Shown here: positions 5,832 through 63,920 of the stretch, one piece after another
Layout: every line of letters starts with the position of its first letter
Position numbering within the stretch: position 1 is the first letter of the stretch
Assembly (NCBI GenBank): GCA_965219995.1
Contig: CBDCOX010000002.1
Span: forward strand, 1,504,001 to 1,568,000
Length of the DNA stretch: 64,000 nucleotides
From: Candidatus Latescibacterota bacterium
GTDB taxonomy: Bacteria > Latescibacterota > UBA2968 > GCA-2709665
Reading direction: 5' to 3'
Position numbers and translations under genes: made by a program
The notes under the pieces: generated by a model
The model's input: only the letters and a program-made list of their open reading frames with translations
Databases searched by the model: none
Told to the model about the DNA's origin: nothing

Positions 5832-5952
5832 GCACTTCGGCAAGCTCAGCACAAGCAACGCAGGCAGGGAAAGCAGCGCAGACAATATAAACAACGTAGC
5901 GAGAGGGGATGAATCGTCGGAAGAATGGTGGGGTATTTCCGGGACAGGACAC
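5832..5952 (+). mobile_element. Partial family A MITE (one TIR) with an adjacent micro-element
   Basis: GGGATGAATC..AAGAATGGTG.GGTATTTCCGGGACAGGACAC matches the end of the 25565-25726 copy; GCACTTCGGCAAGCTCAGCACAAGC at 5832. Confidence 0.8.
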
Positions 5953-7569: not shown

Positions 7570-7737
7570 ATCCCCCACCGCATCAGCCATCCCCGACCCT
7601 TCGACACGCTTCGACAAGCACAGGGACCGAACTCAGGGATCGGCTCGGCTTCTGCGACTCCCCCTCAAGGGGGGAGTGATCGGCCTGTCAATCGGGCACG
7701 CGCAATCACTTCCACCTATTTGGTTGCGGTTGAACTA
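7570..7737 (+). repeat. Family E composite palindromic element copy 1, with doubly nested micro-element
   Basis: CCCCCACCGCATCAGCC..GGCTCGGCTTCTGCGACTCCCCCTCAAGGGGGGAGTGAT..CTATTTGGTTGCGG shared with 63728-63920. Confidence 0.88.
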
Positions 7738-22540: not shown

Positions 22541-22650
22541 TCATTGAGCTTGTCGAAATGCCAACGCTTCGCGACCCGTCGGCAGCACTTCGCCGACCCT
22601 TCGATCCTTCGACAGGCTCAGGGAGCGACTCAGGGAAAGGCGCTCGAGCG
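22541..22650. repeat. Cluster of TTCGACARGCTCA micro-elements, one nested
   Basis: CATTGAGCTTGTCGAAATG; CCCTTCGA[TCCTTCGACAGGCTCAGGGAG]CGACTCAGGG. Confidence 0.85.
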
Positions 22651-25010: not shown

Positions 25011-26110
25011 TTACAATGCGATGGCATCGGATACGAACTGGCTGAAAGTATCCCGCAAGGCGTGCTGTGAGTCCGGCAGTTCAGGCCGCCACTGACGGGC
25101 GGCCATCCAACCCTGGGCGATTCTCGTTGCGGCAATCAGGTCGGGACCCTCGAGGCTCGCGAGTCCGGCTGACTGGCGCTTGACGGCCATTCTCCGGACG
25201 AGGTCCCGGTGGCCCGGGCGATTCCCGTCTCCTGAATTCAGGACCTGGAGGTACGCCGGATCCAGAATCCACGGTCGACGAATCGGGTGGACGTCAATCA
25301 GGACAGCGCGGTCACCACCGGGAGGCGGCTCTCTCATCAAACCGTTGCACATGTGGAAATCATCGAAGCAGGTTTCCGATCCGCATTTCTCGAAAACGAA
25401 ATCCCAGTGGTCTTCGACACTCGATAGAAGCACGTCGACGGGTCCGGGACATTGCCGCCGGATTGCGCCCTCCAGCCAGCCTGAGACTTCCGCTTGCGTC
25501 GTGACACCCAGCGCCGGATCGTCGATCAGATTCGCATGCTGATAGAAGCGAACCCCGGCGTCGAGTGTTCTGTCCCAGAAATAAGTTGCCTAAATTCGGC
25601 CGCAGAGTCGCCCGGCTCGCAAGGCGCCGGAGCGCAGGCGACCTGGCACGGTCGGCGAGCGATGGCAACGCCGCGAGGCGGGATGAATCTGCGGAAGAAT
25701 GGTGAGGTATTTCTGTGACAGGACACTTGCATCAGTTCGAACTCCCTGCCGTTCCAGGAATTGCCCAGGGGTCCGTACGGAATGGCTTCCAATGCGATCC
25801 AGTGGACGTCGATGTCCCCCAGGCGGGAACCCGCGGGATAGACCGCCGGTGTAAGATCGGGCGCCAGGCGATGGAGTTCCCGGCACCAGAAGTTCTCACG
25901 CGCGCCTGTGCCGACCTTGACAATCACGACAAGACCCGTTTCCCGGTGCAGACCCCGGAGATGGACCGCGATCAGCCCGTATTCCTGGACGAAAAGCTCG
26001 ACATCGCGGGCGATCGAAGTAATCGCTTCCGTCCGGTTCACGGCATCGAGAATCGTACATAAGACCTCGTCCTCGCGCGAGACCCGTCCGTTACGATCGA
26101 AGATCCGCAC
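25011..26110 (-). pseudogene. APH-like phosphotransferase interrupted by a family A MITE
   Basis: Removing 25565-25726 plus 2 bp joins ..GREFELM-L-DAGVRFYQHAN..VLLSSVEDHW..DDFHMCN..LIDV in one frame. Confidence 0.85.
25565..25726 (+). mobile_element. Family A MITE, 162 bp
   Basis: TIRs GTGTTCTGTCCCAGAAATA / TATTTCTGTGACAGGACAC; non-coding; homologues at 31497, 57391 and ~5900. Confidence 0.92.
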
Positions 26111-31457: not shown

Positions 31458-32084
31458 CTACAGTTCGGGCGGGGCGATAATCTCAATCGGCCCGAGGTGT
31501 CCTGTCCCGGAAATATCTCGCCATTCTCCCACCGATTCATCCCGTCTCGCGGCGTTGCCCTCGCTCGCAGACCTTACGCAGGTCGCCTGCGCTCTGGCGC
31601 CTTGCGAGACGGGCGACTCGTCGGCCGAATTCAGGCAATCTATTTCCGGGACAGAACAGTCGCCCTTCAACGCATTAATCAAATTGACTTCTCGTCGTAT
31701 ATTCACGTTTACAAGGTGTGTGAAGTTCCAACTGCAAAAATACCCAATTCCGTTGGTCACCGCAACGGCAACATGATTGCCGTCATCTACATATTTCTGT
31801 GGAAAGACTTCCCTTCCAACGTACTCTTGTGCTAGCGCGTCGGCTTCTTCATCAAACACGAGGACTTTGCAATCCTTTACCAGGTTTTCTAACTGCCATC
31901 TCCTCTCCTCGTCAGGAGTGGCACGAATCTCCAACAAGACAACACTTGAAATTACGACTTCAAAGTCTGGCAGACGTTCATGCCAAAACTGAAGGGTCTG
32001 CCCCTGGCGTTCAGGGGTTCTCGAATCGAAATAGGCACTTGGAATCGTTGAATCAAGATAAACACTCTGTCTGGCTATTTTCAC
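31458..32084 (-). CDS. PIN-domain toxin carrying an in-frame 55-aa MITE-derived insertion
   Basis: VYLDSTIPS, DGNHVAVA, SWNFTHLVN and C-terminal PIEIIAPPEL. Confidence 0.88.
   Translation of the reverse strand: MKIARQSVYLDSTIPSAYFDSRTPERQGQTLQFWHERLPDFEVVISSVVLLEIRATPDEERRWQLENLVKDCKVLVFDEEADALAQEYVGREVFPQKYVDDGNHVAVAVTNGIGYFCSWNFTHLVNVNIRREVNLINALKGDCSVPEIDCLNSADESPVSQGARAQATCVRSASEGNAARRDESVGEWRDISGTGHLGPIEIIAPPEL
31497..31659 (-). mobile_element. Family A MITE, 163 bp
   Basis: TIRs GTGTCCTGTCCCGGAAATA / TATTTCCGGGACAGAACAG. Confidence 0.92.
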
Positions 32085-33471: not shown

Positions 33472-33612
33472 CCGTTTCGACACGCTCAATGACGGCGTTT
33501 CGACAAGCTCAACGAACGTCATTGAGCCTACTCTCTGAGGCTGTGACTCGAGAATCCTGCCGTGAACCGCTCCCTGAGTCTGTCGAAGGGACGGCGAGTG
33601 GCAGTCGAAAAA
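33472..33612. repeat. Cluster of TTCGACARGCTCA micro-elements in both orientations
   Basis: TTTCGACACGCTCAATG, CGTTTCGACAAGCTCAACG and TCCCTGAGTCTGTCGAAGGGA. Confidence 0.85.
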
Positions 33613-38980: not shown

Positions 38981-39012
38981 CGTTGAGCCTGTTGAAATGG
39001 CTTGTCGAAACG
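38981..39012 (-). repeat. Nested/degenerate micro-element
   Basis: CGTTGAGCCTGTTGAAATGGCTTGTCGAAACG. Confidence 0.7.
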
Positions 39013-56708: not shown

Positions 56709-57371
56709 TTACGGCCGCGCACCTCTCACGGCAAAGAAAAACGGATGGACCTCTTCCGCAGTATCGGCACCTTTAAGCCCGGCGCCCACGACACCTTCCT
56801 GTTCAATCTCAAACCCGGTTTCAGCGAGAATCTTCCTGTACGTTCCGGGCCCAAAGTTGCTCCAATACATGGTTTCGCCGAAGAAGTCATCCTCCGTGTA
56901 TCCGGGCCCGTCATCTTTCGGTGCGACCGTAAACAGAAGGAGTCCACCCGGCCTGATCCACCGCGCGAACCGCCGAAAGAGTTCCCGATGCTCCTGTCTC
57001 GGAATATGGAAGATCGCGTAGTAGCTGACAATTGCGTCAAAGCTGCCTTCGGGGAATTCGGTCTCCGTAACGTCAGCGTGGATGAACCTGGCGGTAGAGA
57101 CGTTTTCCCTGGCCATGGCTATCATGCTCGAGGAGATGTCGATCCCCGTAACTGAAAAATTATCAGCAAGTTCCTTCACAAAGGGGATACCTGACCCACA
57201 GCCGACGTCAAGAATCCTTGAACCCGGTTCCAGGCGCCCCGCGATCAGGTTGATCTCCGCCCAGGGCCTGGCACTTCGTTGGCTCGCATATTCCGACGCG
57301 CATCGGTCGTAGGCCGCTCTGACAAACGCTCGATAATCGGCCTCTGGATCGTTTGCAATCTTGAAAGACAT
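56709..57371 (-). CDS. Class I SAM-dependent methyltransferase
   Basis: ILDVGCGSG and YAIFHIPR. Confidence 0.92.
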   Translation of the reverse strand: MSFKIANDPEADYRAFVRAAYDRCASEYASQRSARPWAEINLIAGRLEPGSRILDVGCGSGIPFVKELADNFSVTGIDISSSMIAMARENVSTARFIHADVTETEFPEGSFDAIVSYYAIFHIPRQEHRELFRRFARWIRPGGLLLFTVAPKDDGPGYTEDDFFGETMYWSNFGPGTYRKILAETGFEIEQEGVVGAGLKGADTAEEVHPFFFAVRGARP

Positions 57372-57390
57372 TTCTCTTCACCCGATTCTA

Positions 57391-57597
57391 GTGTTTCGTC
57401 CCAAAAATTCCTCACCATTCGACCGGCAATTCATCCCGTCTATTGACGTTGCTTGCGCTGAGCTTGTCGAAGTGCCCTCGCTCGCCGACTATACGCATGT
57501 CGCCTGCACTCAGGCGCTGGGTCCTGAGCCTGTCGAAGGATGCGAGACGGGCGACTCGGCGGTCGAATTTAGGCAACTTATTTCCGGGACAGAACAC
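57391..57597 (-). mobile_element. Family A MITE, 207 bp, carrying two micro-element insertions
   Basis: Aligns to 31497-31659 except for +23 bp (57453-57475) and net +21 bp (57518-57540); intact CTAG at the left junction. Confidence 0.9.
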
Positions 57598-57718
57598 CAG
57601 GAATTCGCTTCGAAAGCAGTTATTCGGCCTTTCCCGGGAGGAAACTCGCCATCTGGCATATTGATATCCAGGCGATATTGTGACCGTCGCAATCACGGTT
57701 CCGGGACAGCAGTGATCA

Positions 57719-60088
57719 TTACTCGTCGCGAAGGGCGTCTACGGGATTCAGCCTTGCCGCCCGAAGGGTTTGTCCGGCGACAATGAAGACAACGATCGAT
57801 AACGCGAGCAACGTCGAATAGACAAACACATCGACAGTCATCTGAATCCTGTAGGAGAAATCCTGCAGCCATCGGGACATCACATAGTATGCGACAGGCC
57901 ACGCCAGGACGCTGGCCAGGAGTCCTGCAAATATAAACTTCCCTGAGTACATCGCCACAACACGCCATTTCGATGCGCCCAGAACGCGACGAACGCCAAT
58001 TTGCTTCGTATCCCGTTCAAGGGTCGATCTGACGAGTCCCGCCAGACCCATTCCGGACAACAACAGCGTGATGCATACGCAGATGCCAACTATCCTGTTT
58101 AAGCCACGTTCTCTTGCGTACCATCGCTCAAACCTCTCGGTCAAGAACCCGCTATTTGACGAGAATGCCGTCTGTGGTGCAACTTTGGACCATGTCAGAC
58201 GAATCCAATCCACGGCATCTTCCACACGTTCCGGATGAATTCTTGCCAGAATGACTGGACCGCTTTTGACGAGGAAAATGCCCAGTGGTTCGACCGGATT
58301 TTGCGGTGACATAAAATGGAAATCCTTGACAACACCCACGACCGTTCGGCGTCTGCGCCACCAGGTGATTTCCTCCCCGATCGGCGAGTCCAGTCCCAGC
58401 AGTCTTACGGCTGTTTCATTGAGCAGACAGGCGTGCAGGGTTTCATCCTGGGCGGAAAAACCTCGTCCCTCATTGATTTCAATGCCCAGGGTCTCCAGGT
58501 AGCGACGACTCGCCGCGAGACTTCGGATGGATACATTGCCGGAAACGGAACGACCCCGCGCCGTATAGCTTTGCAGATTACCTCCCGGGATGCCGCCGGA
58601 TGCAACATACAGAATGGATGGCGATCGATTCAATTCCCGCTCTATCGTCAGGCGTTGATGCGTCGAAAAGCCCGGCGTGGAAAAATAGAAGACCTGTTCG
58701 GGCGACAGACCCAGGTTCCCTTTGTCGATATGGTCCAACTGCAAGTATACGATTGAAGCAACAATCAGCAGAAGTGTGGAAATCCCTACCTGAAACAGGA
58801 ACGGCACATTCCGCAACCACGCTGCCGTTCTGAATGCCAATCTGCCTTCCACGATATTTGCGGGCTTTCCCCTGACCAGCCAGAGGACGGGCAAACTCCC
58901 GGCGCCGATACAAACCAGGAAGACTGGCACGCAAAGTGTGGTTAATACTCCGGTAACATGTTCGAACCCGTAAGATCGGACCGTAAGTGTGATACGATTC
59001 AACCAGGGCAGACACAAGTAGGCGAGTGCGATAGCAAACAATAACGCAATTGCGACAATCAAGAGTGAGTCGGCCACGAAATGCAATGCCAGTTCGGTTC
59101 GATCTCCTCCGAAGACCCTCCTGGCTCCAATTTCCCTCGAGCGGTCCAGAAATCGGGCCGTGTTGAAATTCACAACATTCGTACAGACACCGACCAAAAT
59201 GAAAAACGCCAGGACTGCAGGGACGTAGATATAGACGGATCGGCTGAGACTCACGTTTGCCGAGAACTGTTGATTCTGCGATGGGTCAAGATGGATATCC
59301 GTCAATGGCTGGAGAGAGAGCTGAAAGCGCCTGGCGTCTCGATTTCCATAGAATTCCCGGATGAATTCGCGCTCCTGAAGATCGAAATCGTCGGATGTAT
59401 AGCCTTCATCAAGCAGCACGTACGTGTAGACGGACATCCAGCGTTTGGAATTAAAATAGGTCGGGAGATGGCTGGTAACGCTGTTTATCGAGAAAAGATA
59501 GTCAAAGGAAATGTGCGAATTCCGGGGAATGTCCTTCAGGACACCGGTTACCGTCAGGAAATACGCTTTGCCCTTGAATTCTCCCGCTTTGATTACGCTT
59601 CCCATGGGATCCGAATCCCCAAACAGCCTTCTTGCCAGGGATTCTGTAATCACAATCGAAAAGGGTTTTGCGAGCGCAGTCCGGGCGTCTCCCCTGACCA
59701 GCGGGAAGGTGAATATATCGAATACGTTGGCGTCGACGCTGTAACCTGACGCACGAAATTTACGATCATCGTGCTCAACCACCCGGTTAAAACGGAAAAA
59801 ACGGACGTAATCAAGAATATAGGGATATTCTTCAGACAGACGCGTGCCCATAAACCACGCGGATTGATGCCAGATGCGCTCCCCGTTTTCGAATTGTCGT
59901 CGTACGGTAAGGCGATATATCCGGTCGGCATTCTCATGAAAACGATTATAGCCGAATTCATCCAGCACGTTGACGCCGTTCAGCAATACAGCAGCAATAC
60001 CGACGGCCATCCCTGAGATATTTATGGTTGATGCGACTTTGTGCCTTTTCAGGTTTCGCCAGGAAACGATGAGGTGCGATTTCAACAT
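57719..60088 (-). CDS. MacB/FtsX-family ABC transporter permease (no ATPase gene adjacent)
   Basis: WRNLKRHK..INISG, REIGARRVFG, GVVKDFH and NPVDALRDE. Confidence 0.92.
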   Translation of the reverse strand: MLKSHLIVSWRNLKRHKVASTINISGMAVGIAAVLLNGVNVLDEFGYNRFHENADRIYRLTVRRQFENGERIWHQSAWFMGTRLSEEYPYILDYVRFFRFNRVVEHDDRKFRASGYSVDANVFDIFTFPLVRGDARTALAKPFSIVITESLARRLFGDSDPMGSVIKAGEFKGKAYFLTVTGVLKDIPRNSHISFDYLFSINSVTSHLPTYFNSKRWMSVYTYVLLDEGYTSDDFDLQEREFIREFYGNRDARRFQLSLQPLTDIHLDPSQNQQFSANVSLSRSVYIYVPAVLAFFILVGVCTNVVNFNTARFLDRSREIGARRVFGGDRTELALHFVADSLLIVAIALLFAIALAYLCLPWLNRITLTVRSYGFEHVTGVLTTLCVPVFLVCIGAGSLPVLWLVRGKPANIVEGRLAFRTAAWLRNVPFLFQVGISTLLLIVASIVYLQLDHIDKGNLGLSPEQVFYFSTPGFSTHQRLTIERELNRSPSILYVASGGIPGGNLQSYTARGRSVSGNVSIRSLAASRRYLETLGIEINEGRGFSAQDETLHACLLNETAVRLLGLDSPIGEEITWWRRRRTVVGVVKDFHFMSPQNPVEPLGIFLVKSGPVILARIHPERVEDAVDWIRLTWSKVAPQTAFSSNSGFLTERFERWYARERGLNRIVGICVCITLLLSGMGLAGLVRSTLERDTKQIGVRRVLGASKWRVVAMYSGKFIFAGLLASVLAWPVAYYVMSRWLQDFSYRIQMTVDVFVYSTLLALSIVVFIVAGQTLRAARLNPVDALRDE

Positions 60089-63556: not shown

Positions 63557-63727
63557 ACGGTTCCCGTTCACCGAATCAACCGAAGGATTATGGTGAGTTA
63601 ACTGAGAAAATCGATCGTTTATCCGTATAGCAAGTTGCACTTAGACGGGTTTGAGTCTTGCAGTAATGCTTCTCTGAAAAATGCGTTCATGTTTCTTCAT
63701 GCTGTGTACAACAATCGATGTGCTGCG

Positions 63728-63920
63728 ATCCCCCCACCGCATCAGCCGTCGCCGGTCCTTCGACAATCCTTCGACATTTCGACAAGCTCAATGCAGGCAT
63801 GCTCAGGACAGTGGCTCAGGGGACGGCTCGGCTTCTGCGACTCCCCCTCAAGGGGGGAGTGATTCGACCCTAAGACGGGCTCGCGCTTTTGCAACGATCT
63901 ATTTGGTTGCGGCTGAACAC
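63728..63920 (+). repeat. Family E element copy 2, with triply nested micro-element
   Basis: Homologous to 7570-7737; three TTCGACA halves followed by three GCTCA halves. Confidence 0.88.

Follow-up and report, generated by a model that had tools for sequence, protein, structure and literature searches.

Two 23-nucleotide hairpin inserts in a MITE-like repeat of a Candidatus Latescibacterota genome and the very widespread hairpin family to which they belong

The stretch of DNA analysed here (the window) comprises 64,000 nucleotides (nt) of a Candidatus Latescibacterota genome labelled G000 (assembly GCA_965219995.1, contig CBDCOX010000002.1, positions 1,504,001-1,568,000 of the forward strand), and carries copies of a palindromic repeat, family A, that resembles a miniature inverted-repeat transposable element (MITE). 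The long form of this repeat, 207 bp at 57391..57597 on the forward strand, is bounded by the terminal inverted repeats GTGT..GTCCC and GGGAC..ACAC. Two short copies, at 31497..31659 on the forward strand and at 25565..25727 on the reverse strand, measure approximately 163 bp, and the copy at 57391-57597 exceeds them by 44 bp. A preliminary description of the window had ascribed this excess to two units of a small motif and had taken the copies at 25565 and 31497 to show the corresponding empty sites. Alignment of long and short copies bears out both statements. The only indels of note are one of 23 columns and one of 21 columns net, each containing one motif, and both sites are empty in both short copies. 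The two closest genomes used for comparison, G001 and G010, are approximately 90% identical to G000.

Family A itself is a short, non-autonomous, multi-copy element with terminal inverted repeats and with empty sites in related genomes, as expected for a MITE. A BLAST search revealed a total of 21 full-length copies with inverted termini in G000. Both inserts are absent from 18 of these, insert 1 is found in three, and insert 2 in the window copy only. The MITE at 57391 is missing from the orthologous site in both G001 and G010. The same is true of the MITE at 25565, which is thus itself an insertion relative to both genomes, and at neither of these two orthologous empty sites is a target duplication of the MITE discernible in G001 or G010. 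The copy at 25565-25727 breaks up a region in which G000 otherwise agrees well with G001 and G010 (empty site ggcgtcga^gcatca), and its flanks look coding-like.

Insert 1 was placed by the alignment at 57453..57475 on the forward strand, with its conserved 13-nt loop TGAGCTTGTCGAA at 57459..57471 (forward strand). This placement can slide by 3 nt because TGC is present at both edges, and in the frame common to other copies the insert reads CTTG-CGC-loop-GTG and occupies 57451-57473. Modules of the same type are found at the same MITE site in the copies at C2:1776510 and C2:2812570 (the prefix C2 denotes contig C2 of G000), and also in copies of G010 and G001. Insert 2, TGGG-TCC-loop-GGA, is a 23-nt module at 57518..57540 on the forward strand, with the loop TGAGCCTGTCGAA at 57525..57537 (forward strand). 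It replaces the CT of the short form and therefore adds 21 nt net. At least six family A copies of G010 and G001 also carry insert 2. Furthermore, a partial family A copy at C2:2367876-2367958 bears an insert 2 whose loop holds another nested module, and a family A copy of G010 has a CGGT-CCC-loop-GGG module nested within the loop of insert 2. The short MITE is predicted to fold as one long hairpin, in which an internal loop of 4 nt adjoins site 1, at a helix edge, and site 2 coincides with a bulge of 2 nt. As far as predicted folds of two sites go, this agrees with a preference for unpaired hairpin DNA.

Both inserts are built as a leader of 4 nt (4-5 nt across copies), a 3-bp stem, a 13-nt loop, TGAGCYTGTCGAA, and the return stem. 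The loop, with the consensus TGAGCYTGYCGAA, is almost invariant while the sequence of the stem is free. Loop positions 1-4 and 10-13 are near-invariant, with transitions seen at 6 and 9. The stems are of at least nine kinds, and the three pairs next to the loop are Watson-Crick in 85-98% of unique contexts. Pairing breaks at the fourth position, which is almost never paired. Stems within one subfamily differ by transitions that preserve pairing through G.T, and G.T was counted 18 times against four for A.C. The hairpin would therefore be favoured on the strand reading TGAGC.... The leader, the 4 nt located 5' of the stem, varies by subfamily (TGGT, CGCT, GGTG, CCTG, CGGT, CGAT, CTTG and others). 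The right edge of the module is always located 3 nt past the loop and the left edge 7-8 nt before it. Nearest-neighbour folds leave the 13 loop nucleotides open, and the layout of the loop would allow a T-A pair, two sheared G.A pairs and a G-C pair closing a 5-nt apical loop.

The module is far more frequent than expected by chance. In the window, a 14-mer pattern searched with up to two mismatches gave 14 matches against 0.88 expected, the largest value in shuffled sequence being four. Across G000 the exact 13-mer loop occurs in 142 copies and a loop with one mismatch in 62, against two and 18 for the reversed control. These 204 loops constitute the genome-wide copy set.

Filled and empty sites were compared within the genome by a BLAST search of every copy, with 110-nt flanks, against G000. 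This yielded 37 filled loci with an empty paralogue. In the cleanest pairs the flanks are identical in 25 of 25 positions on both sides and the placement of the insert is free of ambiguity. Four such events were catTG[CTTGTGC-loop-GTA]AGCTTG at C2:4579849, cccTG[CTTGTGC-loop-GCA]AGCTTG at C2:1481227, cattg[CCTGTGC-loop-GTA]agcttg at C2:3339254 and cccTGAGC[CGCTGTCC-loop-GGG]TTGTCGAA at C2:3297165. In all four the target is the loop of an older copy, and none of these paralogous pairs of G000 has a target duplication. A formal scan found 61 of the 204 copies nested in the loop of another copy. The nested inserts are 22 nt (15 cases), 23 nt (22 cases) or 24 nt (23 cases) long and enter after loop positions 2, 5, 6 and 7/8. 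The left flank of the insert ends in TG in 12 of 15 events and in AGC or CGC in the other three. The module thus multiplies as a discrete unit of 22-24 nt without target duplication, and its main targets are the unpaired parts of other hairpins, most of all the loops of its relatives, giving rise to nested hairpins. Nested 23-nt units are also present in the genomes G015, G021 and G042 and at three loci of other phyla. Nesting reaches three to four levels in G015, and G042 has head-to-head doublets together with repeated nesting of CGGA-CAC-loop-GTG.

Orthologous sites were compared with 1.2 Mb of G010, which gave few clean pairs. Two were obtained, C2:1625325 and C2:1631095, both filled with CTTG-YAT-loop-ATG at TGAGCTTG^TCGAA, where G010 is empty between unique flanks. 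The hairpin-bearing spacers of the window at 22.5 kb, 33.5 kb and 63.7 kb were not alignable with G001 and G010.

A small repeat of approximately 130 nt, closed by CCACTTGCG...CGCAAGTGG and bearing one hairpin copy, was observed at C2:1625100-1625550 and C2:1630900-1631300, and in G010 at C1:1638170, C1:1651583 and C1:1678915. Both paralogues of G000 have gained the same 23-nt module, the three paralogues of G010 are empty, and the repeat has no match in Rfam.

The preliminary description had also noted an apparent TGC duplication at insert 1, and had proposed that the stem is templated from, or selected to match, its target. Neither proposal could be upheld. The insert at C2:2812570 has the stem GTA and no duplication, and the TGC at insert 1 is accordingly coincidental. 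The four clean events, with zero ambiguity at their junctions, speak against target duplication in general. Of 15 events, only that at 63778 in the window has a 3' stem arm equal to the 3 nt preceding the insert. Five different stems (GTA, GTG, ATG, ACG and GGG) occur at one and the same target, TTG, and members of the subfamily CTTG-YRY-loop-RYR are found at unrelated targets, namely the MITE site, three kinds of loops and the orthologous pair. Position-wise identity between stem and target amounts to 21 of 45 positions against approximately 11 expected, mostly through a shared final G and middle T. From this excess, a loose and weak bias between stem and target is conceivable.

In G010 and G001 the family A copies show all four combinations: neither insert, insert 1 only, insert 2 only and both. 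Single gains alone are thus insufficient: a site must have been filled more than once, an insert must have been lost, or copies must have recombined. Among the 37 aligned copies of the three genomes, 28 have neither insert, three have insert 1 only, four have insert 2 only and two have both. An unrooted tree of these 37 copies was calculated from 162 columns. L260 and L247, too divergent or truncated, had been dropped from an initial 39, and L174, L175 and L177 were not entered on account of large extra insertions. Short copies are scattered over the tree, which requires three changes for insert 1 and four for insert 2. Forcing the insert-1 copies together cost 19.8 log-likelihood units and was rejected by the approximately unbiased test (p-AU 0.033).

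These results bear on the statement of the preliminary description that filled and empty sites prove insertion at this locus. The general part of it, that the segments are insertions of a micro-element, has gained from the recognition of a discrete and independent repeat family with 37 filled and empty paralogous pairs and two orthologous ones. The claim of proof at the locus itself has lost ground to the four combinations and to a cluster of flanking differences in one strain (described below), both of which point to exchange between MITE copies. The check that it had suggested, an alignment and tree of family A copies, was run on three genomes and gave an unrooted tree. Insertion is the better polarity for four reasons. 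The short form is the large majority (28 of 37) and is scattered over the tree. The modules have hundreds of relatives scattered over unrelated contexts and phyla. Excision of insert 2 would not restore the CT of all short copies, which read GGCGCCTTGCGAG, and would instead leave GGCGC-TGCGAG. Finally, orthologous empty sites exist elsewhere. Conversely, the short copies might be derived, through precise deletion of the hairpins from an ancestral long form. In favour of this are the TGC direct repeats on either side of insert 1 in two copies, at which slippage could take place, and the lack of a root. In view of the four points above we regard this order of events as very improbable.

Evidence from strains was obtained by aligning contigs of public sequencing runs to window positions 57000-58000. 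In the related strain X6, a single contig of 8316 nt reaches across the full kilobase; over 1001 positions it shows 44 gaps and 21 other letters. Depth drops only over the two insert intervals, which indicates a MITE at the same locus with neither insert. The contig of X5, a close strain, covers 57000-57542 with four other letters and 23 gaps; it lacks insert 1 and has insert 2. Its 23 missing letters are scattered over 57442-57475. Furthermore, the 11 bases before site 1 differ at six positions, whereas the remaining approximately 509 aligned bases differ at three. The window version of the 11 bases resembles copies of G010 and G001 that bear insert 1. The clustering of these flanking differences points to a patch copied between MITE copies, and not to a fresh insertion of the module.

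The two strains could also be read as a stepwise series, neither insert in X6 and insert 2 only in X5, in which both modules transposed directly into the MITE at 57391-57597 by two independent insertions. This reading is helped by the fact that no other full-length copy of G000 carries insert 2 and could have served as its donor. It is difficult to reconcile with X5, where the absence of insert 1 goes together with changes at six of 11 neighbouring bases, as a copied patch would leave behind. The window copy moreover groups with copies of G010 and G001 bearing the same inserts (support 81/91), and all four insert combinations exist. Two insertions in situ therefore appear unlikely to us. Recombination between copies is the route by which at least insert 1 probably reached, or left, the window copy, judging from the pattern of sequence differences.

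A history of the following kind would accommodate these observations. Family A in all likelihood lacked both modules at first, and each of them then entered one of its copies on one or a few occasions. The filled states would then have spread and been reshuffled by transposition of the MITE and by short-patch recombination between its copies. The window copy would in this way have gained at least insert 1 second-hand. The module itself would fold on one strand, in single-stranded or extruded DNA, and the folded module would be copied, or cut and pasted, into the loop of another hairpin. That both extra segments are copies of a selfish DNA module of approximately 23 nt is the overall explanation we put forward, at about even chances of being correct.

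Several points weigh against this explanation. Two classes of insert are imprecise, one losing 1 nt of the target (22 nt net) and insert 2 losing two, and imprecise junctions are more readily attributed to repair or template switching than to an enzyme with site specificity. The family A tree is without any well-supported branch, a single origin of insert 2 was not rejected (p-AU 0.38), and polarity within the three strains cannot be rooted. The strain evidence consists of low-depth contigs (5.3 and 2.05) and not of reads. At the two MITE sites, the idea of an unpaired target is based on predicted folds. The replication-strand bias of the copies is not strong: according to whether the origin is set at the GC-skew minimum (3.95 Mb) or at dnaA (3.38 Mb), it comes to 55-61% (p 0.22 to 0.002), and classic single-strand transposition would show a stronger one. 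Finally, no mobilising protein was found with PF01797 (Y1 transposase), the only family tested; neither G000, an assembly 98.6% complete, nor 6 of the 14 congeners, nor G042 with its 346 copies of the module gave a match.

The conservation of the loop across phyla, and the location of 185 of the 204 copies outside coding-like open reading frames (ORFs), would also be in line with a functional site, either protein-binding DNA or a structured RNA, that was spread by selection and not by mobility. In G000, however, the copies run with the flanking gene about as often as against it (54 and 59) and favour neither convergent nor divergent spacers, which argues against a terminator-like or mRNA role. 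Rfam 15 gave no match at the gathering score in the whole window or at the related repeat locus in G010, and only chance-level matches around the MITE. Old orthologous copies carry broken loops and stems, a decay that is expected for selfish DNA. Nesting at multiple levels and copy numbers from 0 to 346 among congeners likewise fit selfish spread, and a functional site is in our opinion improbable.

Exact copies are present in all 14 congeners (39-154 each) and in other genera of the family (1-17), and in a sample of the phylum 90 of 125 genomes have at least one. Numbers are uneven: in genus g33 there is one copy in G041 and 346 in G042, in g20 copies range from 0 to 27, and in g6 there are 40 in G021 against at most two in 20 other genomes. 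The 19-mer CCC-loop-GGG was found at more than 121 loci, a lower bound, in species-representative genomes (reversed control 10) and at no fewer than 126 loci on viral contigs (control 0). Among the matches listed, the 19-mer loci belong to many phyla, including lineages of the candidate phyla radiation, and minimal or small genomes are included. The flanks of these loci are unrelated and match the composition of each host. Outside the phylum the commonest leader is CCGTTCG, with 53 of 195 copies at genome loci and 33 of 162 at viral loci among the matches listed. No description of this hairpin was found, by sequence or by descriptive terms, in the open full-text literature, non-open journals and supplements being outside the scope of the search. 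The hairpin family is very widespread and apparently undescribed.

Our first choice for the agent, tentative and at somewhat less than even confidence, is recognition of the folded loop by some conserved function of the host. This is favoured because the same loop is found across phyla, in minimal genomes and on viral contigs, and no gene travels along with it. A further reason is that the uneven abundance can reflect the history of invasion.

Spread might also proceed without a dedicated enzyme, by copy-choice. A polymerase would stall in a loop, switch at a short match (often TG), copy the module and return once the hairpin folds. The lack of target duplication, the loss of 0-2 target nucleotides, the left junction after TG in 12 of 15 events, and a right edge fixed 3 nt past the loop with a left edge at 7 or 8 nt would all follow readily. 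The presence of the module in small genomes and on viral contigs points the same way, as does the absence of any transposase link or partner resembling an insertion sequence (IS). On the other hand, eight loop positions are near-invariant across phyla, a degree of conservation without obvious use at a purely physical stall site. The unit keeps its edges at a target without homology on the right side (family A site 1), and copy numbers differ between 1 and 346 within one genus. We consider copy-choice doubtful.

Several known systems invite comparison. Palindromic micro-repeats of organelles, such as the GC clusters of yeast mitochondria and the palindromes of green algae, are very short hairpins that have been reported to insert into one another, and no dedicated enzyme is known for their spread. 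They are restricted to organelles and lineage-specific, whereas the loop of the module is common to bacterial phyla and viral contigs. Template-switch mutagenesis at quasi-palindromes is a hairpin-dependent, templated copying at replication that leaves no duplication and corrects the arms within one palindrome; we know of no case in which it disperses a defined 23-nt module throughout a genome. The attC sites of integrons, folded single-strand recombination sites that have conserved core boxes and work with an integron integrase, resemble the module by analogy only, as a structure-specific single-strand substrate. With MITEs the micro-element shares that it is non-autonomous, multi-copy and polymorphic between genomes, and small repeats inside other repeats are known. 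It differs in having no terminal inverted repeats beyond its 3-bp stem, no target duplication and no related IS that we found, and 23 nt is far below the size of a MITE.

Repetitive extragenic palindromic (REP) sequences are lineage-specific and are mobilised by Y1 HUH transposases, whose genes usually lie between copies of the repeat. Like REP sequences, their hairpin-forming doublets (REPINs) and the associated tyrosine transposases (RAYTs), the module system consists of short, imperfect extragenic hairpins in tens to hundreds of copies, with strand-specific folding and a selfish population within a lineage, and some genomes (G042) have head-to-head doublets. A 4-nt extension at the 5' foot of the hairpin is a further likeness, and in REP hairpins this foot is a conserved tetranucleotide of the GTAG type, according to PMC3479197. 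The module, in contrast, has a conserved loop, a free stem and no leader of the GTAG type. It measures only 23 nt and nests inside its own loop, its motif spans many phyla and viral contigs, and there is no RAYT in G000 or G042. With IS200/IS605 elements (described in part in PMC3479197) the module shares the absence of target duplication, an essential hairpin, an insertion point often located directly 3' of a given short motif (TG in 12 of 15 events) and the possibility of seamless loss. It differs in being a single hairpin of 22-24 nt and not two subterminal ones, in that G000 has no Y1 transposase, in that TG does not precede every insertion (loop positions 5 and 6 serve as entry points too), and in its weak replication-strand bias, where IS200/IS605 elements strongly favour the lagging-strand template. 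The logic of the module is closest to REP/REPIN and IS200/IS605, yet it lacks the leader, the cognate Y1 enzyme and the two-ended structure.

This closeness raises the possibility of a dedicated accessory enzyme of another family, working by REP/RAYT or IS200/IS605 logic, that cuts the folded strand at set distances from its hairpin and pastes it elsewhere. The REP-like architecture described above, the discrete unit, the absence of duplication and the bursts in single lineages would suit such an enzyme. However, the leader is not conserved and the strand bias is weak. PF01797 as the sole family tested is absent from G000 and G042, and none of 10 Y1 loci was flanked by a copy with its stem. 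On the last two grounds a link to Y1 or RAYT was rejected, and a dedicated enzyme altogether seems to us unlikely. An autonomous IS-like partner was rejected as well, since in none of 28 regions, merged from repeats of 600 bp or longer, is the motif a family-wide feature of the ends.

With a host function as the preferred agent, it is conceivable, if rather doubtful at present, that the module represents a minimal class of mobile DNA not described before: a gene-free hairpin replicator of 23 nt with a structured 13-nt loop, occurring in most bacterial phyla and their viruses, that inserts into hairpin loops including its own and probably hijacks a universal DNA-processing function and not a transposase. 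If true, it would be among the smallest self-propagating DNA units known, and among the few that are common, nearly unchanged, to bacterial phyla and phage-like contigs. It would also account for a recurrent class of hairpins between genes, along with the spurious small ORFs translated from them. Because close strains differ in which sites are filled, these alleles can serve as markers of very recent genome change. The nesting rule is directly testable with an empty loop as a trap, and the module raises the question of which cellular activity recognises the loop and inserts 23 nt into the loop of another hairpin. For annotation, some caution is advisable, as differences between MITE copies may come from secondary insertion and recombination between copies and not from simple descent.

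Further copies of the module are distributed along the window. The copy at 63775..63797 on the reverse strand, CCTG-CAT-loop-ATG, is nested in the loop of an older copy, and its paralogous empty partner is C2:3297165. On the same strand, a family-A-like fragment holds an insert-1-type module, CTTG-TGC-loop-GTG, whose loop occupies 5836..5848, and 7610..7622 is a decayed nested copy, with the loop TGTGC... and the stem CCC/GCG, of which an orthologous copy is also present in G010. Two copies are located at 22545..22557 (forward strand), in the long-stem context ggtcat-loop-atgcc, and at 22608..22620 (reverse strand), in the context gctccc-loop-gga. Two adjacent copies occupy 33476..33511 on the reverse strand, with loops at 33476-33488 and 33499-33511, and are followed by a copy with one mismatch in its loop (TGAGTCTGTCGAA) at 33575..33587 on the forward strand. 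Finally, a nested copy with a decayed loop at 38984..38996 (forward strand) has an orthologous nested copy in G010.

The family-A-like fragment, at 5836-5952, is 85% identical to family A over its left 61 nt, continues with the insert-1-type module and then diverges, making it a fourth bearer of insert 1 in G000. Another palindromic insert, of approximately 33 nt (gcctgcctgcgcag...ctgcgctgcaggcag), is found in the left arm of the family A copies L174, L177 and L246 of G010 and G001 (alignment columns 38-70), and may be a second kind of small hairpin insert. A composite repeat of approximately 100 nt, GGGGGAGTCGCAGAAGCCGAGCC...hairpin...GGCGACGGCTGATGCGGTGGGGGG, occurs in the window at 63700-63870 and at approximately 17 further loci (for example C2:395352, C2:2472699 and C2:3642973). 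It is a frequent host of nested modules, and the window copy adjoins a G/C-rich, terminator-like hairpin.

Outside the window, the cumulative GC-skew minimum of contig C2, at approximately 3.95 Mb, is located approximately 0.57 Mb from dnaA at 3.38 Mb. The skew is flat between 3.5 and 4.5 Mb, and the position of the origin is therefore uncertain. In G017, a genome of 8.1 Mb from the same family, 32 Y1 matches, most of them identical in score, coexist with only one hairpin copy, which suggests an IS200-like expansion. Copies in G042 and G040 are mostly arranged as head-to-head pairs 25-45 nt apart, resembling REPINs, an arrangement that is not the main form in G000. At C2:972231-973459, one copy of an IS-like repeat of 1164 bp, present in four to five copies, is situated exactly between two hairpin copies. 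The other copies of this repeat are without hairpins in their vicinity, and the arrangement may reflect an IS inserted into a hairpin cluster.

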